IMG/VR virus record: IMGVR_UViG_3300045988_111499
Coordinates: 1 to 58,860 of that record
Length of the DNA stretch: 58,860 nucleotides
DNA from: a virus
Strand: one strand, 5' to 3'
Shown: in pieces, positions 22,699 through 56,600 of the stretch
Layout: each line of letters opens with the position of its first letter
Numbering within the stretch: the first letter of the stretch is position 1
The notes under the pieces: model-generated
What the model was told of the DNA's origin: nothing
The model's database searches: none
Seen by the model: only the letters and a program-made list of their open reading frames with translations
Made by a program: the position numbers and the translations under genes

Positions 22699-23077
22699 TC
22701 AAGTCGTCTAAAAAGCCGCAGAAATTCTCGGCGTAGAAATCTGAAAAGCCGACCGAGCGGCTATAAAAAGGATTTAGGCTCGGTGCGTCCTGCCGGAAAC
22801 GGCAGGGGTATCAAAATCGAAAGGTGAATCAAAGCGGAAGTTGATGAAATCATCAAATCAGCTGAAGCGGAAACCGCATTTTCGACCGACATCAACCGCT
22901 CGAAAAACATTATCGCCTGCTATCGTGTGAAAGGAACGCCGTTCTATTACGCTTCTTCCCCGAAAAAGACGAGGAATACCGCGCAAGGCGTGAGAAAATC
23001 CACGGATTGCAGAGCGAAATCGACTTTGAAAATATGGTAAAAAACGGTCAATTCCAATATTAAGGAGGTATAAGTCA

Positions 23078-23437: not shown

Positions 23438-23681
23438 AAAAACAGAATGGCAACGGATTGGCGAAGCTACGCGGGGACTAGTAATGCATGGAAAAGCAGA
23501 GAAACGGCATCGCACAGTTGGCAAGGATTAGAGAAGCAGTGGAATAGCACTGCAATCAACAGATGGAAAAGCAAAGGATAAGCAGGGCGCAGATTCGCTC
23601 AGAGTGCCAAGAGAAGCAATGAAATGGCACTGCAATTATATAGATGGAAAAGCAGTGAAAAGGAAAAGAAAGGAATAAAAA
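23438..23681 (+). other. Non-coding T-poor purine-rich island A with two ~44-nt repeat units
   Basis: No ORF. GAGAAGCAGTGGAATAGCACTGCAAT (23531-23556) repeats as GAGAAGCAATGAAATGGCACTGCAAT (23611-23636). ATGGAAAAGCA occurs at 23488, 23563 and 23644. Confidence 0.7.
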
Positions 23682-24281
23682 ATGGCAGATTTTGTAGCAA
23701 AAAAGTTAAAAGTTAGATTGACGTTTGTGGAAGAAGTGTTAGGCTCGTCTCCATCAAGCGAGAAAATCTATAGCGAGTACATAGCAAGCAAAGCGCCGGA
23801 CTCGCTTGACACGGAGGACGAAATAGAAGCAATCGAAAACGAGGAAGACAAAGGCGTGACGGTCTTCCCCAAACAAAATGGCAAGCCAGGCGTGTGGGAT
23901 TATCAGATCAAAGGCGCGTTTAAGGACGCTTGCGGCGGTCTTTCCCGCGTAAAAACGACGGAATCAGCCAAAATCAAGGCTTACAAAAAGGTCATTGATA
24001 AGTTGATTTTTGTCGAGCCGCGTTTCGCACCGTATAAAGTCAACGGCGAGCTTGGCATATGCGAGCGACCGCTGAGGACAAGCGGCGCGACAGGCGAAAG
24101 AACAGCACTCGCCGCATCGGAAACACTTCCTGCCGGTTCTTCCGTCGAGTTCACAATTCTGCTGTTCGATGAAAAACTCGAGCCGGCAGTCCGCGAATGG
24201 CTTGACTACGGCAAGTACAGCGGTTTCGGGCAGTGGCGGAATTCCGGCAAAGGCAGATTCACCTGGGAAGAAATCAAATAA
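23682..24281 (+). CDS. Unknown-family protein, paralog of 35447-36103
   Basis: 199 aa. Shares an N-terminal beta-strand motif, an ..IKGAFKDA.. helix and the C-terminal GFGQWRNSGKGRFTW loop with the 218-aa protein. Confidence 0.65.
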   Translation: MADFVAKKLKVRLTFVEEVLGSSPSSEKIYSEYIASKAPDSLDTEDEIEAIENEEDKGVTVFPKQNGKPGVWDYQIKGAFKDACGGLSRVKTTESAKIKAYKKVIDKLIFVEPRFAPYKVNGELGICERPLRTSGATGERTALAASETLPAGSSVEFTILLFDEKLEPAVREWLDYGKYSGFGQWRNSGKGRFTWEEIK

Positions 24282-25298: not shown

Positions 25299-25907
25299 TT
25301 ATTTGCTGGTTGTTATACGACTTGAATTGTCGCTTGCTTGATAAGTCACTTCGCAACCAAGCAACTTTGCTATAGATTTAAGCGGCACATATGCTGTTCC
25401 ATCGTGTACAAATGGCATTACAGCCATGCCGTTTGAATCAGTAAAATAAGCTCTCTCACCGTCTATATACACCGAAATACCATAAGTCACATCAAGATAT
25501 ATCTTGTTGTCCGGAATAATTTCGGGTATCTCTTTCTTCACGTCTGTTTCGCTCGTTGCATCTGTCTTTTCTTGTTGTATTTGTGCGATGTACTCTTCTT
25601 TGGTTATAGTGCCATATTTTTTGAGATATTCTTGAAGGTCTTCTCCGAGTTCGGATATCTTAATTTTTTCAGTTTCTTGAGTTTCCGTTTCTTTTGAAGT
25701 AGTCGAAGTTTGATACAATGACGTGTAAGGGCAAACTCCGTTTACATGCTGATGCGCCGGATAACCGTGATGATAATGGTATTCGCCTGTGCTGCGGTTA
25801 TAGTGTCCTCCGTTCGAATCTGTCCTGCCCGAGTGCGCGAAGCATAGCACAGACAAACCAATTGCTGTTACAAGCGAAAGAATAATTACAAATATTCGCT
25901 TTTTCAT
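25299..25907 (-). CDS. Secreted YHYH-motif protein with copper-amine-oxidase-N-like C-terminal domain
   Basis: Signal peptide, then HSGRTDSNGGHYNRSTGEYHYHHGYPAHQH, with C-terminal ..AYVPLKSIAKLLGCEVTY... Confidence 0.7.
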   Translation of the reverse strand: MKKRIFVIILSLVTAIGLSVLCFAHSGRTDSNGGHYNRSTGEYHYHHGYPAHQHVNGVCPYTSLYQTSTTSKETETQETEKIKISELGEDLQEYLKKYGTITKEEYIAQIQQEKTDATSETDVKKEIPEIIPDNKIYLDVTYGISVYIDGERAYFTDSNGMAVMPFVHDGTAYVPLKSIAKLLGCEVTYQASDNSSRITTSK

Positions 25908-25929
25908 TTCCCCCTCCTGATTGTTTTTT

Positions 25930-26298
25930 TTATTTTTTACGCTTTTTCGCCGCTTTTACGGCAATTCCTATTGTCCCTCCCGCAGCAGCTGCGCCAACAC
26001 CGCACACGGCAACATTTTTGGCAACCTCCTTCCGCTTTCTCTCTTCCTCTTCGCGCTTTAGCCGTTCTTCTTCACGTCTCTTAGCTTCTTCTTGAGCCTT
26101 TATAACATATGGACAGCTTCCGTCGGCATAGTGATAATGCGCAGGCTTGCCATGATGGTAGTGATAATCACCTGTGCTGTGATCATAATGTCCGCCGTCA
26201 GAATCTGTTCGCCCGCTGTGTGCTACACATGGCGACGCGAGTACAAGAGCCAGCAATATCGCAATAACAGCTGTTCTTTTGCATTCTTTTGTCCGCAT
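25930..26298 (-). CDS. YHYH-motif protein with C-terminal membrane anchor (paralog of 25299-25907 N-domain)
   Basis: HSGRTDSDGGHYDHSTGDYHYHHGKPAHYH. Start ATG 26298 overlaps the upstream stop (TAATG). Confidence 0.65.
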   Translation of the reverse strand: MRTKECKRTAVIAILLALVLASPCVAHSGRTDSDGGHYDHSTGDYHYHHGKPAHYHYADGSCPYVIKAQEEAKRREEERLKREEEERKRKEVAKNVAVCGVGAAAAGGTIGIAVKAAKKRKK

Positions 26299-26726
26299 TA
26301 CAGTCGACCTTTCCGCTTCCACTTTTCAAGCTTCTTCTCCACTATCCTCGACACACGTTCTTCTGGCTTCTCTTCGCCAAACAACAGCACCAAAGCTCCA
26401 ACAACGGAAGCAAGCATAATCGCAACGCAAACAACAACCTTTATGATGTTCGACACGATTTCACTCGCACACCACTGATTCATAAAAAAATATCTCAACC
26501 CCAGGCACTTTTCGTCATAACAAAGAATTGCAAGAATCGAAAACGCAAATACGCAAGGAACAAATGTGATAAACACAACAATGTTAGGGTGATTTCCGCC
26601 CAATCTGTCAAACCACTTAAACCGAGCTGATAAGAGTGACACCAAAAGAAACCACATCTCAAGAGTGTAAGGGAGTAGGAAAACTGCAAACACTGTCGCA
26701 ATTGTACAGCCATAAAGCGTACTCAC
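26298..26726 (-). CDS. Polytopic membrane protein (about 4 TM)
   Basis: 142 aa and hydrophobic. Coupled to the repressor gene upstream. Confidence 0.6.
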   Translation of the reverse strand: MSTLYGCTIATVFAVFLLPYTLEMWFLLVSLLSARFKWFDRLGGNHPNIVVFITFVPCVFAFSILAILCYDEKCLGLRYFFMNQWCASEIVSNIIKVVVCVAIMLASVVGALVLLFGEEKPEERVSRIVEKKLEKWKRKGRL

Positions 26727-27058
26727 TTCTTCCCCTCCAATCTGTCAAGCGTATCCATCAGCCAACCGCGCATATCCTCCGGCAAGGCTTCAATCCGCCT
26801 GTATAATTCCATATCAATATCCTCAGCTTCCACCTCGGGAGCCTTTTCTTTTGCTTCCGGTTCTTCTTCGTCGCACAAATACTCAACCGTCGTTCCGAGT
26901 ATTTCCGCGATTTTCGCTAAACGTTCATCGGTCAACTTGTTCTTACCGCGTTCAACATCCGCAAGGTATGTCCTGTTTAAGCCTAATTGTTCGCAAATAA
27001 AGCTCTTCTTGACGCCTTTTAATTTAATTAGAGCGTTGATTTTGTTGATGTTGTACAC
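26723..27058 (-). CDS. XRE/CI-like repressor
   Basis: Track ORF 26723-27229. Likely start is GTG 27058 (VYNINKINALIKLKGVKKSFICEQLGLNRTYLADVERGK...), an HTH_3 pattern. Confidence 0.6.
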   Translation of the reverse strand: MYNINKINALIKLKGVKKSFICEQLGLNRTYLADVERGKNKLTDERLAKIAEILGTTVEYLCDEEEPEAKEKAPEVEAEDIDMELYRRIEALPEDMRGWLMDTLDRLEGKK

Positions 27059-27114
27059 AAAGAAATACCTCTTCTTGTCAAAAACATAGAATCCCAATTT
27101 TTGTTGGAAATCTC

Positions 27115-27144
27115 TTGACTTCCCAACGATTGTTGGAGTATAAT
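27115..27144 (+). promoter_or_regulatory. Sigma-A promoter TTGACT, 18 nt, TATAAT driving the tRNA cassette
   Basis: -35 at 27115-27120 and -10 at 27139-27144. Divergent from the CI-like gene. Confidence 0.6.
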
Positions 27145-27248
27145 ATACACGTAGCCGGAACACAGGAGAGCTTCGGTTACAGTCTGTCCTCCATTTTTGA
27201 TTATACCGTGTAAGCGGCGGATAGGGCACACGCCGAACTGCACGGACA

Positions 27249-27318
27249 ACGCGTCATATGTTCAACGGTAGACAGTGTCACAGTGACACAACAGCGGTTC
27301 GACTCCGCAAGGCGCGTC
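27249..27318 (+). ncRNA. tRNA-like element with non-canonical anticodon arm (possible tRNA pseudogene)
   Basis: Acceptor pairing CGCGTC/GGCGCG, D-arm TGTT-CAACGGTA-GACA and T-arm GCGG-TTCGACT-CCGC. The anticodon region GTGTCACAGTGACAC cannot form a 5-bp stem with a U33/R37 7-nt loop. Confidence 0.3.
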
Positions 27319-27396
27319 TTGTCATTGAGTTGTTTTCTCATTGATTTTACTCCTTTCGACGAGAGATAGGTCTCGGACATTCCCTGTCTCTCGTAC

Positions 27397-27467
27397 TGGG
27401 GAATCGCCAAACGGTAAGGCAAGGGACTTTGACTCCCTCATCGCAGGTTCAACTCCTGCTTTCCCAT
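27397..27467 (+). tRNA. tRNA-Gln (anticodon UUG at 27429-27431)
   Basis: Full cloverleaf folded by hand: TGGGGAA/TTTCCCA acceptor, GCC-AAACGGTAA-GGC D-arm, AGGGA-CTTTGAC-TCCCT anticodon arm, GCAGG-TTCAACT-CCTGC T-arm. The 5' half is close to E. coli tRNA-Gln as I recall it. Confidence 0.85.
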
Positions 27468-27471
27468 TTCA

Positions 27472-27702
27472 TCACCGATTAACCTCCGGCTTGTCCGTCC
27501 TCCCGAGAAGATAGTCAACGGACACGTCGAGATAATCGGCAATGCGCACAATTGCTTCGAGCCGGGGATAATACCCGCCGCTCTGCATGGATGAAAGTGT
27601 ATTGATACTCAGCTGGCAGTCATTGAGCATCTGCTTAATTGTAACGCCCCTGACTTTAGCGGACTTCTTAATAACCGCCGCTACCTCTTGTGTACCATAC
27701 AC
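27472..27702 (-). CDS. XRE-family HTH regulator
   Basis: Track ORF 27472-27762. Likely start is GTG 27702, 8 nt after GGGAGG. The segment ..GVTIKQMLNDCQLSINTLSSMQSG.. is the HTH. Confidence 0.6.
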   Translation of the reverse strand: MYGTQEVAAVIKKSAKVRGVTIKQMLNDCQLSINTLSSMQSGGYYPRLEAIVRIADYLDVSVDYLLGRTDKPEVNR

Positions 27703-27737
27703 AAAAAACACCTCCCGAAATTGTGCAAGCATACAAA

Positions 27738-27790
27738 TCACAAGAAGTTGTGAGTAACCCATTGAAAATCACAAGAACTCGTGATATAAT
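27738..27790 (+). promoter_or_regulatory. Switch region: operator-like inverted repeats TCACAAGAAGTTGTGA (27738-27753) and ATCACAAGAACTCGTGAT (27768-27785), plus promoter TTGAAA, 17 nt, TATAAT (27762-27790)
   Basis: Read directly. The second inverted repeat fills the promoter spacer. Lies between divergent HTH genes. Confidence 0.7.
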
Positions 27791-31686: not shown

Positions 31687-31894
31687 GCTGCACATCAACT
31701 GGAAATCGCGCGGCTACACCGACGGCGGAATGGCGGAATTGCTCGAAATAACACCGAAAACAATTCATTACAAACTCAGCGGAAACTTCCCTCACAACGG
31801 CTACAAAGCGCATTTTAAGGTCAACGAGATATTACAGATAATACACTATCTCGGCTTCAAGCTCTATCTTGTGAGAGAGGATGATGAGAAATGA
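31640..31894 (+). CDS. Small HTH-like protein
   Basis: 84 aa with the segment ..GGMAELLEITPKTIHYKLSG... Confidence 0.5.
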   Translation: MRKATEIIDERQLVSELHINWKSRGYTDGGMAELLEITPKTIHYKLSGNFPHNGYKAHFKVNEILQIIHYLGFKLYLVREDDEK

Positions 31895-32736
31895 ACATCC
31901 CCGACAGATGGATAGCTAAGCTCGATTCTCTCCCACCCAAGGACTTCAAAACGCTTGTGATGGCAATTCTGAAAGACGAGAGCGAACCCGAGATAACGGA
32001 AAAATTACAGTTCGTCGCTTCCGATATTTACGCCGATATCAAGCAGTTACAGCAAACAAGCGAACGTGTGAGAAAGTCTCGCTCAAAGCGTTACAGTAAC
32101 GTTACAGTAACAGTTACGGAAACGTTACAGAAACATAACAGTAACGGTTACAGTAACGTTACAGAAACAAAAGAAGAGAAAAGAGAAGCGTCTCCCCCTT
32201 GTTCCCCCTCTTCTTTTCCCCCACACCCCCTTATTAACTCCCCCTATAATCCCCCTCTTGAAGAGAAAAGAGAAGAAGCACTAACGGGCGTGTGCGCGGG
32301 CGCGTGTGAGGAAGAGCAGATACCCTTCGAGGGCTTTGAACCTCTTGACCCGCCGGAATCCGAGGTTAAGCGCAGAAAACCGACGATAGCGGAGCGTTTT
32401 GAAGCCTTATGGGCAGAATACCCCAAGAAAAACGGCAAAAAGAACGCTTTTGAGAGCTATCAGAGAGCTATAGCAGCCGGAGTAACCGACGAGACTATAG
32501 CCGACGGTATCAAGCGATACAAGGAGCATATAGCCGCAAAGCGCACGAGCGAACAGTACATACTTGCAGGCTCGACATACTTCTACCAGTGGCGATGGCA
32601 GGACATATACGACACCGTATCAGCCGCACCAACTTGCAGCGAAAAATCGGGAGGTGATGAATTTCTAAATTACCTCAACGAGGAACTTGAAAAAGAAAAA
32701 GCGAAAAGAGAAAGCCGATGGACAGAACAGACGTAA
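31891..32736 (+). CDS. Replication initiator / replisome organiser (SPP1 G38P-like) containing the origin iterons
   Basis: Iterons lie inside the ORF. C-terminal ..FEALWAEYPKKNGKKNAFESYQRAI... Followed by a G39P-like gene. Confidence 0.6.
   Translation: MNIPDRWIAKLDSLPPKDFKTLVMAILKDESEPEITEKLQFVASDIYADIKQLQQTSERVRKSRSKRYSNVTVTVTETLQKHNSNGYSNVTETKEEKREASPPCSPSSFPPHPLINSPYNPPLEEKREEALTGVCAGACEEEQIPFEGFEPLDPPESEVKRRKPTIAERFEALWAEYPKKNGKKNAFESYQRAIAAGVTDETIADGIKRYKEHIAAKRTSEQYILAGSTYFYQWRWQDIYDTVSAAPTCSEKSGGDEFLNYLNEELEKEKAKRESRWTEQT
32090..32168 (+). repeat. Seven tandem ~11-bp iterons GTTACAGTAAC (variants GTTACGGAAAC, GTTACAGAAAC, ATAACAGTAAC)
   Basis: Units start at 32090, 32101, 32113, 32124, 32135, 32147 and 32158. 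Confidence 0.85.
32173..32275 (+). repeat. Two copies of the 16-nt mirror repeat GAAGAGAAAAGAGAAG (32173-32188, 32260-32275) flanking a C-rich pyrimidine tract
   Basis: Read directly, adjacent to the iterons. Confidence 0.8.
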
Positions 32737-35446: not shown

Positions 35447-36103
35447 ATGGCTACAAAAACAGAACAGAACACACTGGAAATCAAGGAAATTATTCTCGAA
35501 ACAGTTACATTGAGAATCGTCGGCGAAACACCGCTCATTATGCACGCATGGAGTGAAAAGGCAAAGCGTGAAATCCTCGACAAGCAGATGAAAGCAACAA
35601 AGACAAGCGCGAAAAAAGCAAAGAATCCCGTCGAGGACTTTATCAGGTCAATGTACTGGCTCACACCAATGCCCGCAGACATGACAGAAGAAGGATTCAA
35701 CGAAGCTATAGCAAACGGCGCAAGGTTCGGCTTCCCTGTCACGGCGTTCAAACAAGCCGCAATTTCCGCTTCCTACCGTATGGGATGGAGCAAGGACAAG
35801 GCTTCTTTGAGGGGTGTGTTCTTCATAGAGGGAGACGAAAATCAGATGATTGAAATCAAAAGCGACGTTCCCGTAATGCGCGAAGACATGGTGAAAATCG
35901 CGGGAGGAACAGCGGATATTCGTTTCCGTGGCGAGTTTAGAAACTGGTACGCCGACATGAAAATAACATACAACAAGAACGGACAGTACACACTTGAACA
36001 GATAATCAACATCATAAACGCAGGCGGTTATTGTTGTGGCGTAGGCGAGTGGAGACCCGAACGAGACGGTCAGTACGGCAAGTTCAGAGTAGCTACAATC
36101 TAA
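35447..36103 (+). CDS. Unknown-family protein, paralog of 23682-24281
   Basis: 218 aa. Contains VTLRIVGETPLIMH, ..VTAFKQAAISA.. and C-terminal GVGEWRPERDGQYGKFRV. Confidence 0.65.
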   Translation: MATKTEQNTLEIKEIILETVTLRIVGETPLIMHAWSEKAKREILDKQMKATKTSAKKAKNPVEDFIRSMYWLTPMPADMTEEGFNEAIANGARFGFPVTAFKQAAISASYRMGWSKDKASLRGVFFIEGDENQMIEIKSDVPVMREDMVKIAGGTADIRFRGEFRNWYADMKITYNKNGQYTLEQIINIINAGGYCCGVGEWRPERDGQYGKFRVATI

Positions 36104-36381
36104 CCTCTTGGCAGGCAAGTTTGGGCGCGTTTTGTTAAGCTGCGGTACGGCAGGCATGGCAAGCTATGGCTCGGCAAGTTGCGGCGGGTTGCGGCAGTGT
36201 GCGGCTTGGCACGGTACGGCAGGTGTGGTGAAGTAGGGCAGGGCAAGGCAAGGCAAGGTTTAGTAAGGTTCGGCAGGTATGGTATGGTGGGGCTCGGCTC
36301 GGCTCGGCTCGGCAAGGTGGGGCACGGTATGGCAGGTATGGATATACCAAAATTATTAACAGTTAACAAAGGAGCAAAACA
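36104..36381 (+). other. Non-coding G-rich, C-poor repeat island B
   Basis: GGTACGGCAGG at 36144 and 36213. GGCAGGTATGG at 36272 and 36331. (GGCAA)x3 at 36242-36256 and (GGCTC)x4 at 36291-36310. Confidence 0.7.
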
Positions 36382-36843
36382 ATGGTTTACGAATGGAAAG
36401 AAGCGGCGCAGATTAAAGCGGACGCACAAAAAGCAGGAGAAATGTTAGAAAATTTGGAGAAAACTGTAGGGATTACTCCAAAGAATTTAGTTGAAGCAAA
36501 CAGAGATGATTCGGCACCTCTGCACAATGAATTTGAGTGGAACGACACAAAAGCCGCCGAAAAATACCGCGAAACACAAGCAGGCTATATCATTCGCAAC
36601 ATATGTGTTGTGAGAGAAAGCGAAGAGAAACCGCCCGTCAGAGCGTTCTATTCCGTTACAACCGACGAAGAACGCAAATACGAAAGTCTGAATGTGATTA
36701 TAAAAAGTGAGGACAAAACAAAGAAACTTCTTGAATCCGCATTAAGAGAACTTATCGCGTTCAAAGCGAAGTATTCAATGCTTTCCGAAATAGCGAATGT
36801 AATTAAAGCTATCGACGAAGTCCAGTGCAATATTGAAATCTGA
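36382..36843 (+). CDS. Hypothetical protein (153 aa)
   Basis: RBS AAAGGAG. The segment ..DDSAPLHNEFEWNDTKAAEKYRETQAGYIIRNI.. looks like a conserved phage family whose name I cannot place. Confidence 0.6.
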   Translation: MVYEWKEAAQIKADAQKAGEMLENLEKTVGITPKNLVEANRDDSAPLHNEFEWNDTKAAEKYRETQAGYIIRNICVVRESEEKPPVRAFYSVTTDEERKYESLNVIIKSEDKTKKLLESALRELIAFKAKYSMLSEIANVIKAIDEVQCNIEI

Positions 36844-37275
36844 TAAAGCAGCAAGAATATAACTGCAACGGAACAGATAAGCTGCGACACGATTAGCAAA
36901 GGAATAGAAACGAATCGAGAGGAAACGCACCGCGCCGAAATGGAATAGCGCGGCGCAGCAGTGACAAGCTCCGCAACGGAAACGAATTGATATGATAGGC
37001 ATAGAGCAGAACCGCAACGGAAAAGCGAAGCACAGAATCGCACAGCAACGGAGAAGACAGGCGTCGCAGAGAGCGGCAATGGAATGGCGCTGAGACGCAA
37101 CGATTGGCACAGCAACGGAAAGGCAACGTAAGGAATCGAATCGCGACGAAAGGTGTAGCAACGGAACAGCAGTGCTAAGATACGCCACGGAATGGCACCG
37201 AATCGCTACGACAGAACCCGAAACGGAAAAGCAAAAATACCGCGCCGGACGGAATCCGGCAGAAAGGAAGATAAT
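36844..37275 (+). other. Non-coding T-poor purine-rich island C (GCAACGGA x6, small CGGAA-loop hairpins)
   Basis: GCAACGGA occurs at 36865, 36973, 37014, 37045, 37112 and 37158. Hairpins at 36930-36953, 37156-37177, 37184-37196 and 37244-37260. Stops in the checked plus frame. Confidence 0.7.
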
Positions 37276-37572
37276 ATGAAAATCGACACAAATAAGTATT
37301 ATATCGTAAGAGGAGACCGCTCCGGCGTATTCTTTGGCAGAATCAATTATCAGGACGGCAAAGAGGTGCAGATGAACGATGTGCGCTGCATATGGTATTG
37401 GGATGGAGCAGCGTCAATCGTCGAACTCGCTCAAAACGGCGTAAAATACCCCGAAAATTGCAAATTCACCGTGACGGTAGAGGAACTAACAATCATAGAC
37501 GCGATAGAGATAATCCCTTGTACGGAGGAAGCAACGGCGATAATTAAGGCGGTAGAAGAATGGAAAGCATAA
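37276..37572 (+). CDS. Hypothetical protein (98 aa)
   Basis: ATG 37276 follows AGAAAGGAAG (MKIDTNKYYIVRGDRSGVFFG...). Confidence 0.55.
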   Translation: MKIDTNKYYIVRGDRSGVFFGRINYQDGKEVQMNDVRCIWYWDGAASIVELAQNGVKYPENCKFTVTVEELTIIDAIEIIPCTEEATAIIKAVEEWKA

Positions 37573-38291
37573 CCAAACGAATAAAGGAGTTTCTTAATGT
37601 CCGCTCTGGCTATGGCGATGGCGATGGCGATGGCTCTGGCTTTGGCGATGGCTCTGGCAATGGCTCTGGCTATGGCGATGGCGATGGCGATGGCTCTGGC
37701 TATGGCAATGGCAATGGCAATGGCGATGGCTATGGCGATGGCTCTGGCAATGGCTATGGCTATGGCTTTGGCTATGGCTATGGCTATGGCGATGGCTATG
37801 GCTATGGCAATGGCTTTGGCGATGGCGTAAAGAAAGTGAATAATCACGATATCTATATCGTAGATGATACACCCACCATAATCACGGCATTGTTTAACAA
37901 TTATGCCAAAGGTTATATTGTGGGCAACGACCTCACGCTTAAGCCTTGCTATATTGCAAAAAACGGAGACATTTTTGCGCACGGCAAAACTCTCCGAGAA
38001 GCAGTAACCGCATTGCAAGACAAACTGTTTGAAGATATGCCGGAAGAAGAGCGAATAGCCGCATTTATTGAGTGCCACGATTATGATGGAGTTTATAGTA
38101 ACTCCGACCTATACGATTGGCATCACAAACTGACAGGCTCGTGTGAGATGGGCAGACAGCAGTTTGCAAAAGACCACGGCATAGACCTTGACGGCAAAAT
38201 GAGCATAAAAGAGTTTATCAAACTCACCAAAAACGCATACGGCGGCGCAATCATAAAAAAGCTCGAAAAAGAGTATCGGAAAGGAAGATAA
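37560..38291 (+). CDS. Protein with an N-terminal run of 37 X-Gly dipeptides (X = Y/D/S/N/F) and a globular C-terminal domain
   Basis: 243-aa ORF. Repeat tract is 37605-37826. Confidence 0.65.
   Translation: MESITKRIKEFLNVRSGYGDGDGDGSGFGDGSGNGSGYGDGDGDGSGYGNGNGNGDGYGDGSGNGYGYGFGYGYGYGDGYGYGNGFGDGVKKVNNHDIYIVDDTPTIITALFNNYAKGYIVGNDLTLKPCYIAKNGDIFAHGKTLREAVTALQDKLFEDMPEEERIAAFIECHDYDGVYSNSDLYDWHHKLTGSCEMGRQQFAKDHGIDLDGKMSIKEFIKLTKNAYGGAIIKKLEKEYRKGR
37605..37826 (+). repeat. Hexanucleotide microsatellite (NNT-GGC)x37
   Basis: Every Gly codon is GGC. Every partner codon is TAT, GAT, TCT, AAT or TTT. Confidence 0.95.
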
Positions 38292-38292
38292 T

Positions 38293-38877
38293 ATGGCAAA
38301 GTTTAAAGTTGGAGATAGAGTTAAGATAGTTGACAATAGATATACAAATTGTAAAGTTGGAGATATAGGCACAATAAAAGGTATTAGGTTGTGTGGGGTA
38401 CTTCCATATGCATTCGAGCTTGACCATGATATGGAGGGTAGCTTTCACTCTTGCGATGGGCTTACGAATGTTAATCGTGGACAGTGGGTTTGTAGTGTTA
38501 ATATAGAACTTATTGAACCGGAATTCAAGTTGGTTGTTATCTCTAAAGGTGATAAGACAAAAGCTAAACTTTATCGCGAAGAATCCCTTGAAAAAGAAGT
38601 CGAAGTAAATCGTTATTACAAGGATGAATACTCAGAGAAAGCCGCCGTTGAAGCTGTTGTGAAGAAGATTTTCGGCGACGACGAGAAAAAGAACGAAGCA
38701 AACAAGCCGTACACTGGCAAGGCTGTGTGGATATGCGACAACGAGAGCGTTTATACAAAAGGCAAAATATATGAATTTGTTGACGGCAAATTCAAACACG
38801 ATTTAGGATTTACAGTTGGCGGATACACCCTCGAAAAAATGAAACGGCTCGGCTGCTTTCTCCCGATAGTGGAATGA
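38293..38877 (+). CDS. Hypothetical protein (194 aa)
   Basis: Coupled ORF with N-terminal KVGDRVKIV, an SH3/KOW-like pattern. Confidence 0.55.
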   Translation: MAKFKVGDRVKIVDNRYTNCKVGDIGTIKGIRLCGVLPYAFELDHDMEGSFHSCDGLTNVNRGQWVCSVNIELIEPEFKLVVISKGDKTKAKLYREESLEKEVEVNRYYKDEYSEKAAVEAVVKKIFGDDEKKNEANKPYTGKAVWICDNESVYTKGKIYEFVDGKFKHDLGFTVGGYTLEKMKRLGCFLPIVE

Positions 38878-47611: not shown

Positions 47612-50600
47612 ATGGCGACAAAGAAATATAAGAACTCAGAACTCGGAGAACTCGGCAAATATCTTGAGGAAAGTTCTAAGAAGAAAGAAACTGACAGCAG
47701 CAATGCATCAAGCGCATTGTCAAACTCTTCTTCGGTGCAAAGATACGACAATCTCGGCGAAAGTCTGAATAACTATTTACAAAAATCAAGCGGTGTAATC
47801 AGAAAAAACGACTATGTAAATGCGCTCAATGCGCAGAGAAAGGCTATAGGTGCGGCAGTAAAGTCAGCCGTGAATTCCGCTACTTCTTCAAGACTTCCAT
47901 CGGAAATAAGCGATGCGGAAAGAGAAGCCATTGCCGAAACAACAAAGATAGCAAGGTTCAAGGAATCCGAAAGAGAGGAAGCCGCAAAAAGAGCGAAACT
48001 CAACTGGAAAAGACAGACTTCACCTGTGGTGAACGACTTAAACGATGTTACTGATGCGATAGACTATGTTTACAAGTCACAGCACAATGCAGGCATACAA
48101 GGATGGGAAGACATGGTGGGCGGCATAAACGCCATAGGCGCAGGTGTTTTAGGGGGCGTGAAACAGCTCACCAGTGCAATTAGCGGAGACGAGACAGCAC
48201 AAAAAGCAGTGTTAAACGATACTGCCGGTGCGTGGAGTGACGCGTTTAAAAAATCGTATGCGGATTATGTTAACAAAAACTCTTCAGAGGATGCAAGCGC
48301 GGCGGCACAGTATGAAATAGAACGAACTCACCCAAAGCAGGCTGAAAAGGGAAAATATTCTGTTACTCAAATAGCAAAGAACGTTACAAGCAACGCGGCA
48401 AGAATGGCTCCGCAGATTGCTATGTCAGCCGCTACGGGTAAGTTGGCTGGTGATTTAGCCGGTCGAATAGTAGGTGCTACATTGCTCGGCGCGCAGTCCT
48501 CGGTCGGCTCATACCGCGAAGCCAAGGAGGAGGGTGCAAGCGACAGACAGGCAGCGGACTTCGCCGGTCTTGAATTTCTGAACCAAGGCTTTGGTGATAT
48601 TGTGATTGGCGGTATAGGTGGCGCGACGTTCGGTTTGCTCGACAAACCAATGTCAGTGCTTGCCGGAGCAATCACTAAAACTCCAATCGCCAAAACAATC
48701 ATTCAGGCGAGCGGCAATATAGCCGGAGAAGGATTGGAGGAAACCGGGCAGAACTACCTGACTACGCTTAACAAGCGATTGACGTATAAACCCGACGATG
48801 AGTTTGATGTTGATTCAGCGGTATATGAGGGTGTTCTCGGAGGCATCAATGCCGCAATTCTCGGCACTCCCAAAACGTACAGCCAGTACAAAGTCAACCG
48901 CGCCGCGTATGATACCGTCAACAGTCTTTCCACAGCGGCAAGCAGAGTCAGCTCGGAGCAGGACGCAAAAGTCATTTCCGATATGGCAGACCAAATATCA
49001 AAAGGTGCTGATGAAGTCATAGCAGATTCCAAAACAGAAACAGCCGACAAAGCAAACGCCGAATATATAAAGCGCGGTGTAGAAGAGGTAAAGAAAAAGC
49101 TGAACGAGAACTCCGCAAACATCGTAAAAAACAATCAGTCTGTTTTGGAGAAAACACAGGAAATAATCAGAACGCATAAGACAAGCGATGCAGAATCTCT
49201 CTCGGAACTTGTCAATGCAGTCAAAGAATCCGGATATGGCGGAAACAGTAATAACGCCGTAAACAATACCGTCGACTATGTAAACGAACTCATAATAGAA
49301 CAGAATCAAGTGGCAAAAACAGCTGAAAGTATTGCTTCTATGCAGGACGGTCAGATATCGGAAGACGCGCAGACAGCGGCAGTTCAAAAACAAAAAGCCA
49401 ACGAAGCACTTGAATACACAAACACTGTAATTCCGCAACTCAAGAGTATCAGCGAAAACCTACGTTCCAAAAGAAGCGAGATTAACGCCCGTCTCAAGCT
49501 CGACGAAAATACAGAAACAGCGGCAACTCAAGATGTAAAGCAGGAAGTCAATACTCAAACTACAGCCACAGATACATCGGCGAATGCGACAGCCGAAGCT
49601 CAGCAAACCCAAACAAATACCACAGAGCGCGTCAGCAACAGCGCATACCATTCAGAAACCGCAGAGAATATCCGTAGCACTTACGAAGGCAGGAACATAA
49701 AGGAGACAGCAGAGAACATTATCAAGGCTCACGGCAATGTCAGAAGTGCTGTAGACTATGTCCATGATGTTTACGCAAAAAGCGGAGGTTCTAATGCAGA
49801 CGCGTCTACAAAAGAATATATCCGCGCACTTGATAGTGAAATCAGAAAAGCAAACAAACCTCTTCTCGAAAAGAACATAAAGAGAATAGAAACGCTTCTC
49901 AAAGAGTACGGTGTAAAGAATGTTGAAATAGACGAAAGCATTACTCCGTTGACGGATGACGGTAAATCCGTGTGGGGAATGGCTCATTATAACCGTGGCA
50001 CAGGAAGGATATATGTTTCTCCCTACGCAGACGGCAAGGCAATAATCGGCTCTAAAATCGTCCATGAATTTACCCACCATGCAGCAAAAGCCGACAATTC
50101 TCTTGTGGGTGACATTCTAAAAGCCGCAAGAGAATCAAAAGTCTTCAACAAGGAAATAAAGCTTGCTGATGGAACAACCACAACCACCGTCGACAATCTC
50201 ACGCGCCTTGTGAAAGAAAACTACGCCGATGAGATAAACGAATACATTGCAACCTCAACAAACCTCTCGCGCTACAAGGTGCTTGTCGGAATGGGCAAAT
50301 CAGAAGCAGATGCCGCCAGAATTGTTGCAGATGAGTTCAAAGCGTCTCATGCGGAAGAATACAACAGCATAGTTGACGAATACGTAAATGAAGATACTGC
50401 GGCTTATGTTATGGAATTTCTCAATCAAGAAAAAAACGAGGACATTCTGTCTCAGCTGATTAAAGACAATCGCCCTCTTTGGAAGCGTATTCTTGACAAG
50501 ATTGAAGATTTCATTGCAAAGATAACCGGCAAAACCGAAGCAAGAGAATATCAGAAAGCCGCCGACAAAATAAGAGAAATTCTCGGAAACGAAATCGACG

Positions 50601-53600
50601 CAAAGGTAGAAAACACAGGCTCTTTCAAGGCTATTCAGCAACAGATTAAAAACGGCAACTCCAAAATAGGAAACACTCCCGATGGAAGAAAGTTCTCTAT
50701 GGAGCTGAATGTAGATGAATCCAACGGACTTTTCGCAATTCACAATCTCACAGCAGACAGTTTCATGAAATCATATGAACTCGGTGGATTTGCTATGCCG
50801 TCTATTGCAATTGCAAGAAGCGATGTGGGTCATTCCAATTTCGGAGATATCTCTCTTGTATTCGCTTCCGATACAATCAACCCCGCAAACCCGGACAACA
50901 AGGTTTATTCGGCTGATGCATGGACACCGACATTCCCCAAGATAGAATACGAAGCAAACAGCAAAGTCACAGATAAACTGCGCGACAAATATTATGAGCT
51001 TTACGGAAAGTTCGGTCATGAAAAAATCTCCGCTTTATATCCTTACGGAAATTACTTTGAAGAGCAGCTCAATACAGACGGCGGTGTTGACGGTATAATC
51101 TCAAAGCAAAGCAACAATCCGCAGATGATGCAGGTTTATCTTGCCGACACACAAGGAAAAACTGTTGATTCTGTTGTCAAAGAAACAAAAACTACACTTC
51201 CGTCAGAACAGGTAGAACAGTCTGAATTCATTATTGATAAGCTCGGTGCAGATACTGTAAATGAAATGCGTCCGCAAGCCAATGAATCTCCCATAAGCGC
51301 ACGCAAGAGATGGATGAGCGAACACGGAGATGCTTTCAAAGCCGCATACACCGATTATTTGATGCAGTCGGGACTTACCTCAGAAGAAGCACAAAACGCG
51401 ATAGACAATATGACTAAAGCGCAGTTGTTATCTCAGATGGTTAAAGCACGTAATTACCTTGCGAATGGTGCTGAAACTGTAAAATCAGAAGTAGATACAG
51501 AAGCTACCAACAACGCTATTAAAGAAGCTGTAAATCAAGAGGATTACTTGAAATGGCTTCACAGCCTTTTTGACGGCGGCGAAAAAAAGTCAGGCGTTCC
51601 AAACGGCAAAGAACCGTATACACGCAACGGCAATCAACGCCCTTTCTCTGCAACACATTATCCCGTCACGCTTGATAATATAGTTCTCTCGATGAAGTCA
51701 CAAGGAGACGGCAACACCAAAAACGCAACGTCAGTATTTGTCGGCTCAAAGACAATCCGTGCGGAAAGCGCAGCAGAGTACAGTTCTCTCGATGAAATAA
51801 GAGCCGATAAAGGCAGACTTGCTCATAGAACCCCGGAAGAAGCAAAAGCTGCATGGGATGAGTTTGATAACCGTTTGTCCGCTATCATAAACAGAATAAT
51901 GGATGCGGAGAGCGGAATCGACAACCGTTTCATCGAGCAGGACAGAATAGGCTCTGTTCTCGCGGAAGCTTCAAGGAACAATACCGAAGCCAACATAAAA
52001 AAAGTCCTTACTCAATATAAGCTCACTCCGACAGTAGCAGCAGATTTCAAGGCACTTGTAGACGATATCAAGTCCGCGCCGGTTGACATCTTTGAAGCAA
52101 AGCCAGAAAGAGTGGTAGGGCTTGACGAAGTAAAGTATGCCATAGTTCCGTCAGACATAAACTCCGACGTTACAACAGCACTGAATAACGCCGGAATAGA
52201 AACCAAAACATACGAAAACGGCAACGAAGCGGACAGGCTGAAAGTTCTGAACACGCTATCCGACGTAAGATTCTCGAAGCAGCTTGACACAGACACCTCT
52301 TCCAAAATAACGCAAGCCGACGTAGAACAGCTCCGTTCAATCGGAAGAAAAAGCATATTCGAATTTACATCAGAGGATATTCAGAAGTCCGAAAAATGGG
52401 CGAAAAAGTTCTACTCAGAACTCGGCACAAAGTCTCCGTTCTTCCGTGCATGGTTCGGTGACTGGCGTGAGAATGATACTGGGACATACAAAGCCGTCAA
52501 AGCAAGTGGCAGCTCTTATAGCGGTGCCGGGCGGGCGCATAATACAGATATGGGCAGGGACATTTCATGGGGGAGTTCTTTAACAAGAGAAACCCAAAAC
52601 CACGCTGTTAAATCCAAAATTGCCGTGTCTGCATTAGGCGATATTCAGAGTGTAGTAGAAAACTCTATATACTTAGACACAAACATTTCTGAAAAGTCAA
52701 GCAATACTAAAATGCAGAACACAGCTTTCATGCATAGTTTGTATACAGTTTATGAGAGCAACGGACAAAAATACTTGCTTAAACTCTTTGTGGAAGAAGC
52801 ACTTCCAAATAAAGGCGGAGAACCGTTCTCAAGAGCATATGAATTAAAAGATATAGAAAAAATAGCCGATTTATCTGGCGGTGTTCTCTCACAAAAAGGA
52901 GGCTTAACCGAGGATAAATCGACTACCAGTATCAGTATATCCGATTTGTACGCACTTGTCAAGGGCTACGACAAAGATTTTAAGTCTCAACCGTCAAGCA
53001 AAGTCGTGAACACAGACGGCACGCCTAAAGTTGTATATCACGGAACAACGGCAAACTTCACTGAATTCAAACCAAGCAACGGCGCACTCGGAAAAGGAAT
53101 ATATTTCACGGATTCCAAAGACTTCGCGAAAGGCTATACATACCAAAACGGAGTGGCGGTCGGAAACGTCATGGAATGCTATCTCGATATAAAGAATCCG
53201 TACATAGTGAAATATGCCGATAACTACGATACAGATGCATTGAGAGAAAAAGGTTACGACGGAATATTGCACGAAGCAACCGGAATGTACGTAGCATTCG
53301 ACCCGACGCAAATAAAGTCTGTTGACAACATCGGGACATTCGACAAAGGCAAAGGCGACATACGCTACTCCAAAGAGCTAATGACGGCAGAGGAAAAGAA
53401 GAAAGTCCGCCAAGCAGAAAGAGCGGCATATCTTGAAAGACAGCTCGTCTCAACCGCACCGCTCGGAGGAAAGGCAAAAGCCGTTTCTCCGACAGCAAAA
53501 GCCGCAGTAGCAAAGAAAATAGCGTCAGGTATGCCCGGCGTATCGACAGCTCAGGTAAACGAACAGCTCACAAAGTTCTTTGAGGTTATCGAACACCCAA

Positions 53601-56600
53601 AGGCAACAACACCCGCCGCATACAGAGATGAAGTCCGTCAAATGGCAAATGTCACGGCTCAGAACCTCTACAACGAGTTCCGCATAGAAAACACAAACCC
53701 GCTGTATGATGAGTTCAACGATGCATATAACCACATCAAGAGCCTTAAATTCAAGATGACCGACGCTGTAAAAGACGACTTCGGCAAAGAAGCATACAGT
53801 GACTTCTACAAGAGAGCAAGAGGAACATTAAAGCTCCGCGTTAACGACGGTATGGCAGTAGACGAGCTGTGGGGCGAACTGTGCAACCTCTATCCTTACT
53901 TTTTCAACGAAAGCACCACAAACCCAAGAGAGATGATGGAGCAGATATACGAGGTTCAGTCTTCGCTAAAGAAAACTCCCGGACATCCGTATTACGACAT
54001 GAGTTCTGAAAACACAGACATATTTTCAGAAGGTGAAGACACCGCAACAGTAAACTCTATAGCGGACGCTCTTGTAGCAGCATACCTTGAAAACGCCAAG
54101 CCTACAGTTGCGGCAGAAAACAAATCACTGCGGAACGAAAACAAACGCCTTGCAGAAGAAGCCAACGCAGCAAGGGGAGAAGCCGCCGACGCAAAAACCA
54201 CGCTTAAAGTAACTATGGACTGGAATCAAGCCGAACTGACTAAAATGTACGGAGATTTCACGCGCCAAATCAGCGAAGAACAAAAGCAGCTGCAACAAGC
54301 AAACAGAAAAATCGAACGCTTGACAAACAAGGTGGAAAGAAAAAATGTAAACATGGCTCAAAAGACAGCTCTCAAGGAAATAGGCAGGTTGCATGAGATG
54401 TTTACAAATCCCACTAAGCAGAAGCACATTCCGCAGAATCTCAGAGCGGCAGTCGGCAGTTACCTCACATCTTTGAACAACACAAAGCTCTTGAACGGCA
54501 AAACCGTAAATTCTCAAGAAATAACTGAAATACTACAATCAGAGCGTGAGAAAATAAACAATGAAGCCGCCAAGGTCATCAACACTTTGTCAGGCAAATT
54601 CACAACTGATTCGGAACTGTATCAGGGTAGGTCAACAAGGCAGATAGAAGCACTGAAATTTGAACTTGACAAATTAACCGAGCTTGCTAACGAAAGCCCA
54701 AACAGCGGAATTGATTCTTCTAATAATGCCGATTATATCAGAACTGTCACAGACCTTACAAGAATGGTGAACTACCTCGTCAAGCAGTCAAATGACTTCT
54801 TCACGGGAACAAGGAAAGTCGAAGCCGAAACCTTTGCGAAGAGCTGGATTGACGAACTTTCCGGTCACAAAACACGTATCGGTGAGACCGGATTTGAGCG
54901 AAGCCAGTTCAAAAAGCTGCTTGACGGAGTAGGCTACAGTTTCATGTCAGCGGACTTGTTCTTCTCGACGATGGGAGAACCCGGCAAGGAAATATCAAGC
55001 TGGTACAGAAACGCTCAAACGCGTCAGGTGAAGATGAAGCAGGAGTACGGAGAGTATATGTCCGAGCTTCTGGGAGACAATTACAGCACCATCTCCGGAA
55101 GCACACAGGCGAAAAAGAACCTGATTGATGTGAAGATTCATGGCAACGACGTAAAAGTATCGAAAAATCAGCTCATGTCATTGTATCTCACATGGAAGAG
55201 AGCGGCAGGTCGCAGACACCTTGAAAACGGCGGAGCGGCATTCACAAACGCAAACAACGAGACAAGCAAAGTTTACGTTATCGACGAAGCAACATATAAC
55301 ACACTCATGGAAAAGCTGACAGCAGACGACAAGAGAATAGCAGACGGCATAGGAAAGTTCTTATCGGAAAACTGTTCGGAATGGGGCAATGAAGCTTCAA
55401 TGCAGCTCTACGGAATCAGGCTTTATGAAGACAGCAACTACTTCCCGATTCGCACACCAAGCGAACTGCGAGACACAAACTTCTCAAACCTCGCAGATAC
55501 GCATACCATAGAGAACTCATCGTTCACCCACAAGCTCAACAAAAACGCTAACGCCGCCGTAGTCATTGGAGACGTGTTCGATATAGCAGACAGGCACGTA
55601 AACGATATGTCAGCTTATTCAGCATATGCGCCGCTCAACAACAGCATGGAAAGAGCCTTCAACGCCAACGGATTAAAGCGTGCGCTAAGTTCAGCATACG
55701 GTAACAATGGCGTAAAGTATATGCAGGACTTCATCGACAAAATTAACGGAAACGAACCAAAGCGCACCACAGGAGAGAACGCAAACAAGGTTCTCAATTT
55801 CATCTCCAACAATGCGAAGAAAGCGGCAGTTTCGGCTAACATTTCGACAGCATTGAAGCAGCCGTTGTCTCTCGTAAGGTCGTGGCTTGTCATAGACCCC
55901 AAATACACCCTCGCCGCGTATGCCCAAATAAGACCAGGCGTAAACAACATAGTTAAGCAAAGCAAGGAATACAACAGAATCCTGAACACCATGAACGAAT
56001 ACTCCGGTATTGCCGTGATTAAGTCACTGGGATATTCGGACACGGGAATAGGAACTACCACACGAGAAACCTATGACGAGCAAAGTCTCAAATCTGCTTA
56101 TAATAAAGCCAAATATATTAAGCAGTCAGCCGAAGACATTGCAATGAGACCCGCCGAATTTGCGGATGAAATCACATGGGTGCGTATGTGGAAAGCGTGT
56201 GAACTTGAAGCTAAGGCAAAATACGGCAATACATTGTCTACCGATGAATTTAACAGACACGTCGCAAACAAGTTCAATGAGATTATCGGCAAGACACAGG
56301 TTGTCGATTCGATTCTCGACACTGCACCGATAAGCACCAATAGGTTTTTCAAGACGCTGTACCCGTTCATGAACGAACCTGTAAAGACCGCAGCAACACT
56401 CATCTCAGCGGCGGAAAACGTCAGAAACGGCAAAGCAGGAGCGAAAAAACAATTAACAAACGCTATCGGCTGCTATGTTATCTCGAACTTGTTACTTGAG
56501 CCTATAGTCTCATCTCTCATCGGTATGTGGAGACACGATTCGCCCAAAGACCCCGAAGACTTCGCAAAGAAATTTTTGGAAAGATTTATAGGCATTAAAG

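Follow-up and report, generated by a model that had tools for sequence, protein, structure and literature searches.

What is the function of a long, T-poor non-coding stretch in the early region of a phage genome? The question is raised by island C, positions 36844..37275 on the + strand of the virus record IMGVR_UViG_3300045988_111499 in IMG/VR. The whole stretch of 58,860 nucleotides (nt) that was analyzed is called the window. Island C lies between a gene for 153 amino acids (aa; 36382..36843) and the DUF6948 gene (37276..37572), and consists of ten staggered pentamer blocks preceded by a leader and followed by a conserved 3' end. An earlier, sequence-only reading had suggested a structured RNA or an array of protein-binding sites. 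Our analysis indicates that island C is quite probably a staggered array of guide-RNA units, vrRNAs, of the VIPR (Viral Interference Programmable Repeat) type.

Two 2026 preprints, including bioRxiv 10.64898/2026.04.26.720920, describe VIPR as phage-borne, RNA-guided DNA silencing of competing phages and propose that it is older than CRISPR. In these descriptions, a phage Cas7-like RAMP protein, Vipr, polymerizes on vrRNAs, one protomer per repeat. The vrRNAs consist of tandem pentamers, canonically GGY/NN, and pairing of their variable bases with double-stranded DNA skips 1 nt. The Methods section of bioRxiv 10.64898/2026.04.26.720920 lists NNNGG, YNNNG and NNNNG as alternative repeats, and its fig. 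S18 is captioned as showing staggered arrays, with a 1-nt overlap between vrRNAs such that each starts at the end of the one before.

Pentamer Register of Island C

The organizing feature of island C is a 5-nt periodicity of G. It had been missed in the sequence-only reading, and the 8-mer words and hairpins reported there are secondary to it. When parsed for G at exact 5-nt spacing, the island resolves into ten consecutive blocks (36870..37213, + strand), each containing 5-10 exact pentamers N-G-(A/C)-N-N, and together they account for 80% of the island. From the first block to the last, the periodic G begins at 36871, 36902, 36943, 36979, 37020, 37051, 37082, 37118, 37164 and 37190, respectively. 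All ten blocks start with GGAAx and most of them end with xGGAA; thus the register slips by +1 nt at each xGGAA word, and adjoining blocks are offset by that 1 nt. Block length is 5k+1 nt, with units of 31, 36, 41 and 46 nt.

The boundary word GCAACGGAA is found first at 36865..36873 (+ strand). The six copies of the 8-mer GCAACGGA, which start at 36865, 36973, 37014, 37045, 37112 and 37158, were all correctly located before, and all six are block boundaries. Their spacing had been considered irregular. It is not, because the pentamer register slips by +1 at every xGGAA word: the distances of 108, 41, 31, 67 and 46 nt can each be made up from units of 31, 36, 41 and 46. The remaining register slips carry the variant boundaries AAGGAA, ATGGAA, CACGGAA, AAACGGAA and GACGGAA. 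The whole window contains 16 copies of GCAACGGA against 2.3 expected, six of which are within the island.

The periodicity is far above chance. For lags of 5, 10 and 15, the autocorrelation of G in the island is 2.12x, 1.95x and 1.72x, respectively, and the flanking genes have no such peaks. First-order Markov simulations (n=2000) gave a mean of 0.61 blocks and a maximum of 4, with a top lag-5 value of 1.41. Around ACGGA, in 82 distinct contexts from the window and its relatives, G is placed at -10, -5, 0/+1, +6 and +11 relative to the word. Position 3 of the pentamer is A in 0.41-0.49 and C in 0.43-0.51, with values of 0.41 and 0.51, respectively, for the ten blocks of the island, and positions 4 and 5 are A-rich. 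On the + strand of the window, 17 of the 19 runs of at least six units fall in three arrays, at 23456-23610, at 36114-36345 and in the island.

The island has no gene on its + strand, as the sequence-only reading had stated, and no ORF (open reading frame) was found there. An ATG at 37192 is in frame with the downstream gene and stays open into it; the stretch from this ATG varies among relatives and precedes the Shine-Dalgarno sequence (37263). The base counts are A167 G126 C97 T42, so that T amounts to 9.7%. Three ORFs on the minus strand (36648-37115, 36775-37188 and 36893-37126) are present over the island and are composition artefacts, in agreement with the previous judgment. The strand asymmetry itself points to a function as a single strand.

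The island RNA is not globally structured. The minimum free energy of the + strand is -93.3 kcal/mol against -96.6 +/- 5.4 in dinucleotide shuffles (z = +0.62). The search against Rfam, with the window and seven related loci, showed no match in the island at the gathering threshold or at E up to 5. The proposal of a structured RNA is thus not supported by either result. The minus strand has a folding z of -2.76, and there is no indication that it is transcribed. Inside the island, the + strand lacks promoter- or terminator-like sites, in keeping with read-through within an operon. The blastn search against GenBank phages returned no match.

Turnover of Blocks among Related Loci

With the island 3' end as the search pattern, 45 loci were retrieved from viral and metagenome collections, and 44 of them were usable. 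They contain 34 distinct versions of the array, ~100-450 nt in length, all with 7-12% T. None of the relatives has an ORF or a conserved reading frame over the island. An intact ORF in related genomes, which the sequence-only reading had named as the sign of a decayed gene, is therefore not observed.

The versions differ in an ordered manner. The periodic G differs in 1 of 55 columns across variants, the boundary-word columns in 22%, and every other pentamer position in 53-69%. The conserved elements of the island are the periodic G and the boundary word GCAANGGAA only. Blocks are drawn from a common pool and behave as cassettes: phages that are otherwise near-identical differ by the gain, loss and reshuffling of blocks. 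The junctions are at ACGGAA words and the indels are 31, 36, 41 or 46 nt long. Conservation of the words, which had been set as a check, is thus seen in the form of a boundary word, but the hairpins are mostly not conserved. All four CGGAA-loop hairpins described previously are present in the window; hairpins 1-3 are not kept in relatives, and folding energy does not exceed chance. Only the fourth, at 37244-37260, is present in all relatives.

This terminal hairpin is part of the conserved 3' end of the array, GAACCCGAAACGGAAAAGCAAAAATACCGCGCCGGACGGAATCCGGCAG (37214..37262, + strand). Since it overlapped the retrieval pattern, its conservation is not independent evidence. The hairpin and the Shine-Dalgarno sequence are unchanged in variants, whichever gene comes next, and the stem shows a 1-nt indel (GCCGGA/TCCGGC vs GCCGG/CCGGC). 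On the minus strand, the same hairpin (37243-37261) is followed by a T-run and scores like an intrinsic terminator. Judged from the sequence, it could block antisense transcription into the array.

The flanks of the island are mosaic. Upstream, a dUTPase gene, the accessory gene vap or a RAMP gene is found, and downstream one of five alternative genes. In most relatives, the island directly follows the stop codon of the dUTPase gene, and dependence of the island on the 153-aa gene upstream was rejected for this reason. In the lineage of the window, a three-part module is inserted between the dUTPase gene and the island. The Shine-Dalgarno region and the ATG of the downstream gene (37263..37278, + strand) form the first copy of AAAGGAAGATAATATG, whose exact second copy is at 38280-38295. 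The exact repeat is 17 nt long, GAAAGGAAGATAATATG, and its copies are located at 37262-37278, the island end, and at 38279-38295, the end of the gene 37560..38291. It is considered to be a recombination or deletion junction, because in two loci (L001 and L003) the two genes between the copies are absent and the island is joined directly to a homologue of the gene 38293..38877.

A Second RAMP Protein with Arrays of the Same Type

Genes for two stand-alone RAMP proteins of the Cas7-like kind are present in the phage, and a pentamer array adjoins each of them. One of them, 199 aa in length (23682..24281, + strand), is proposed as the partner of island C, based on Foldseek matches, a G-loop and the adjacent arrays. 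Its AlphaFold model has a pLDDT (predicted local distance difference test) of 78.5. The best Foldseek matches of the model were type VII Cas7 and Csm3, with E = 3.7e-8, a probability of 1.0 and a TM (template modelling) score of ~0.6. The C-terminus carries the G-loop GFGQWRNSGKGRF, which contains GFGQWR. No PHROG or Pfam family was assigned to this protein, and the protein collection contains 4410 homologues.

Directly upstream of this gene is a third pentamer array (23438..23681, + strand) of N-G-(A/C)-N-N, the same consensus as in island C. It gives the strongest period-5 signal in the window. The array and the 199-aa Cas7-fold protein, 23438-24281, constitute a second VIPR-like locus. A Pistol self-cleaving ribozyme (RF02679, 65.4 bits) is located at 22747-22813 on the + strand, ~600 nt upstream of this array and the RAMP gene. 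As a VIPR preprint reports vrRNA arrays interspersed with hammerhead ribozymes, the Pistol ribozyme may, by analogy, be a processing element of the second locus.

Homologues of the 199-aa RAMP connect this type of array to island C. In IMG/VR, 73 of 74 homologue loci (56-63% identity) have an adjacent array on the same strand. These arrays are 120-720 nt long and consist of blocks of 6-9 pentamers starting with GGAAx or GGCAx. Their commonest 7-mers are GCAAAGG, GCAACGG and GCAATGG, corresponding to a boundary word GCAANGG. The architecture and the boundary word of island C are exactly those of the arrays beside the 199-aa RAMP homologues.

The same gene family also accompanies the island itself. 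In six loci (L131, L134, L140, L146, L172 and L173), the island is directly preceded by a homologue, which is 66% identical, with 64-74% across loci by tblastn. Where the sequence upstream of the island extends over at least 10.4 kb, all such loci have a homologue of 91-97% identity 8-11.5 kb upstream. In the window, the distance between island C and the 199-aa RAMP gene is 12.6 kb. At least 20 island loci have no vipr gene of PHROG 4652 nearby, which indicates that the island is independent of the vipr locus adjacent to it in the window.

Island C as a Probable Staggered vrRNA Array

Island C is most likely an NNNNG-type staggered vrRNA array that serves the 199-aa RAMP, and most likely a new example of the system described in 2026 rather than an unknown element. 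The sequence-only reading knew of no described phage element with such a word structure. This was reasonable until April 2026; NNNNG-type and staggered VIPR arrays are now reported in the preprint. The array of single-strand protein-binding sites suggested at that time is close to a vrRNA array which, by analogy, would be bound by one protomer per pentamer.

Based on the comparison with type II VIPR, the following mechanism is proposed. Island C would be read through within the early + strand operon, and cleavage of the transcript, or its delimitation, at the GG boundary words would give units of ~31-46 nt. On each unit, one RAMP protomer per pentamer would be anchored on the invariant G, so that a short helical filament would form. 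The bases left free in successive pentamers may then engage in gapped pairing with the double-stranded DNA of a competing phage or prophage, and the paired competitor DNA would be silenced at the level of transcription. Turnover of blocks would change the set of targets.

The staggered NNNNG/YNNNG arrays of the preprint share several features with island C: tandem non-coding pentamers with a conserved G, a position adjoining a stand-alone, same-strand phage RAMP gene, hypervariability between related phages, and units that are offset or overlap by 1 nt, each ending at the start of the next. Island C is unlike them in having A/C rather than Y at position 3, in its conserved boundary word GCAANGGAA, in its distance of 12.6 kb from the presumed RAMP gene and in abutting a VIPR of another type. 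The proposed match to the NNNNG/staggered class is based on the Methods text and a figure legend. According to the same preprints, the type II systems of SUSP1 and a P. fulva prophage (PDB 36pp) also have variable bases between conserved G-containing positions and one protomer per pentamer, a stoichiometry that island C presumably shares, and their arrays are located upstream or downstream of vipr and vap. Type II vrRNAs follow strict GGY/NN, with 9-16 repeats and a ~40-nt structured tail each, whereas in island C a single G is conserved, the blocks contain 5-10 repeats and none of them carries a tail of its own. Decoding with a 1-nt skip has been demonstrated for type II alone.

The proposed system also resembles Class 1 CRISPR, in which a Cas7-fold protein polymerizes along a guide RNA in a fixed register and short conserved elements lie between variable guide cassettes that are gained and lost between strains. 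The register of the island is 5 nt, not 6 nt, the guide information would be non-contiguous, there are no identical repeats of 23-55 nt, and no cas1, cas2 or other cas genes were found among the scanned ORFs.

Several observations weigh against the assignment to VIPR. The canonical GGY motif is not seen in island C: G occupies position 1 in 0.19-0.21 of pentamers, and A and C are equally frequent at position 3. In this respect the island fits the NNNNG repeat variant of the preprint's Methods. The type II layout is likewise absent, with short blocks, no ~40-nt structured tail on each and one conserved 3' hairpin at the array end; the layout fits the staggered, 1-nt-overlap architecture of the preprint's legend. 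Among close variants, positions 4-5 are no more variable than positions 1 and 3. The extreme depletion of T is not accounted for. The relationship of the 199-aa protein to the Vipr family is weak in hhalign (E = 1.2e-3, probability 19%), with the G-loops aligned, and its family is not placed among the seven published VIPR types. In one locus, L156, 9.9 kb of sequence upstream of the island is without a RAMP gene, which may lie further away.

The target search belongs to the same side. With the 1-nt-skip rule, no enrichment over wrong skips was detected in 1.45 Mb of fetched sequence, a small database that gives the search low power. Exact matches numbered 15 for skip 1, 8 for skip 0 and 5 for skip 2 in this database, and matches with at most one mismatch numbered 94, 132 and 111, respectively. 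The canonical guides likewise gave no signal in this small database.

It is conceivable, although rather doubtful, that island C is a trans-acting, cassette-type guide array, in which GCAANGGAA-delimited blocks are exchanged, duplicated and deleted between co-circulating gut phages as in a CRISPR array without Cas1, and that the near absence of U is a functional requirement of this class of repeats. In this reading, cross-loading or a decoy function between the two VIPR systems of one genome is a possibility, raised by the finding that the array may be distant from the gene of its RAMP and adjoin a second, different type of VIPR.

Alternative Explanations

The mosaic surroundings of the island could also be produced by a passive pentanucleotide satellite, that is, a former vrRNA array or a slippage product, now decaying into a recombination-prone linker at a mosaic junction. 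The 34 versions in 44 loci with breakpoints at repeated words are compatible with it, as are the different flanks on both sides among relatives (five downstream genes; upstream dUTPase, vap or RAMP) and the 17-nt repeat that marks the two-gene deletion. The phage also encodes RecT, whose relatives bind DNA in a 5-nt register (PMC11611040). A neutral satellite is unlikely, because the near-invariant G register and the boundary word would not persist in it. The periodic G is maintained while all else varies, and the block architecture and boundary word are retained beside RAMP homologues of only 57-63% identity. A nucleation site for RecT, considered because LiRecT binds DNA at 5 nt per monomer (PMC11611040), was superseded by the association with RAMP and survives only as a part of the satellite explanation.

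It is very unlikely that island C is a decoy, which would mimic vrRNA scaffolds and titrate the Vipr proteins of rival phages, in analogy to RNA anti-CRISPRs, rather than guide the phage's own RAMP. The distance of up to 12.6 kb from the presumed RAMP gene, the location beside a VIPR of a different type and the relaxed consensus unlike GGY are in favor of a decoy. However, the consensus and the boundary word match the arrays of the phage's own 199-aa RAMP family. A decoy for the neighboring family would need the GGY type, which island C is not.

A sponge or structured RNA, the latter as in the sequence-only reading, whose hairpin loops would expose GGA/CGGAA motifs for binding by an RNA-binding regulator, for example CsrA, is highly improbable. 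In island C, GGA occurs ~16 times and GGAA is found in the loops of four hairpins, and its A-N-GGA word resembles the CsrA/RsmE core motif. The 16 GGA motifs are close to the ~14 predicted from base composition, and folding is no better than in shuffles. The island has no Rfam match to CsrB/Rsm or another family, hairpins 1-3 are lost in relatives, and no CsrA-like gene was found among the 30 ORFs of the window scanned against Pfam. The words are positioned exactly at the register slips of the pentamers, which a sponge leaves unexplained. The likeness to CsrB/RsmZ sponges and to the (G/U)AG sites of TRAP is limited to many short purine motifs in an otherwise unstructured RNA bound by a multimeric protein and, for TRAP, to a spacing of ~5 nt. 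In contrast to these RNAs, the island conserves one G per 5 nt, not a looped GGA or a GAG/UAG triplet, and has no Rfam match.

Double-stranded iterons of a replication origin or partition site, suggested by direct repeats in a non-coding early-region stretch with replication genes ~4 kb upstream, are next to negligible in probability: the strand asymmetry extends over the whole 430 nt including spacers (T 9.7%), there is no AT-rich unwinding region (G+C 0.45-0.55), the spacing follows 5k+1 instead of the helical phasing of 17-22-bp iterons, near-identical phages have anything from ~2 to 11 copies, and the island travels with the RAMP gene, not with a replication initiator, the initiator-like gene (31891..32736) being 4 kb away.

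Four more candidates were rejected. A decayed gene is contradicted by the lack of an ORF or conserved frame in any relative and by indels of 31, 36, 41 or 46 nt. A CRISPR array does not agree with repeat families that are 60-77% alike and a conserved element of 7-9 nt, and no cas1/cas2 was present among the scanned ORFs. A mimic of a type III toxin-antitoxin system (ToxI-like) and the template of a diversity-generating retroelement were dismissed, as exact tandem repeats are absent and the scanned ORFs include no reverse transcriptase.

The Neighboring VIPR Locus

The other RAMP of the phage is encoded two genes upstream of the island. This gene, vipr (35447..36103, + strand), encodes a 218-aa Cas7-like protein of PHROG 4652, which matches PDB 36pp_D, annotated as "SUSP1 Vipr protein", with E = 2.7e-6. 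The G-loops of the two proteins align as CGVGEWRP and CGVGDWRP. It is followed by a pentamer array of the GGY/NN type, the canonical type of vrRNA array (36104..36345, + strand), with runs of up to 15 pentamers. Its lag-5 autocorrelation is 1.75 for G, 2.20 for A and 1.95 for C, and it folds worse than shuffles (z = +2.79). In homologous loci, GGCAGG/GGCAAG arrays occupy the same place. The third component is the 153-aa gene immediately upstream of the island (36382..36843, + strand), a vap-like accessory gene of PHROG 15946. Because the match to SUSP1 Vipr is followed by a GGY/NN array and then by an accessory gene, the region 35447-36843 is predicted from its sequence to be a complete canonical VIPR locus.

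The order vipr-array-vap recurs in ~90 loci of several phyla, from Clostridia to Sphingopyxis, and the vap-like gene is paired with a vipr homologue in nearly all of them. The AlphaFold2 model of the vap-like protein has a pLDDT of 90.7, and the fold search with this model gave nothing significant.

In four loci, the order is reversed: a vap homologue is followed by a T-poor non-coding region of 400-850 nt and a distant vipr homologue (22-25% identity). These non-coding regions (L008 4430-4830, L009 4445-5270, L010 1110-1660 and L011 4400-4990) contain GCACA/GACAG pentamers as well as segments that are complementary to each other over a long range, such as ACGACCTCACCCAAGGG ... CCTTTGGGTGAGGTCGT. 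None of the four has an Rfam match. They may represent another array architecture with structured elements.

Significance and Other Features of the Window

The window provides a compact natural example of VIPR from gut Clostridia phages, with two RAMP families and three pentamer arrays in one genome. The 34 array versions in 44 loci document gain, loss and reshuffling at the level of blocks with a conserved boundary word. This set of arrays can be used to study the processing and decoding of staggered NNNNG-type arrays and the rate at which guide repertoires turn over in nature, and to test whether an array acts at a distance from its protein gene. For annotation, T-poor non-coding islands with G at every fifth base in phage early regions are to be treated as candidate vrRNA arrays.

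Other features of the window include the gene 37560-38291 (+ strand), which encodes a Gly-rich (GYGDGS)n protein from GGCNNN hexanucleotide repeats; its repeat tract varies in length and sequence among close relatives. A tRNA gene (27397-27467, + strand; 59.7 bits) adjoins a block of minus-strand genes (25299-27762). A single ORF of 3350 aa occupies 47612-57664 on the + strand.
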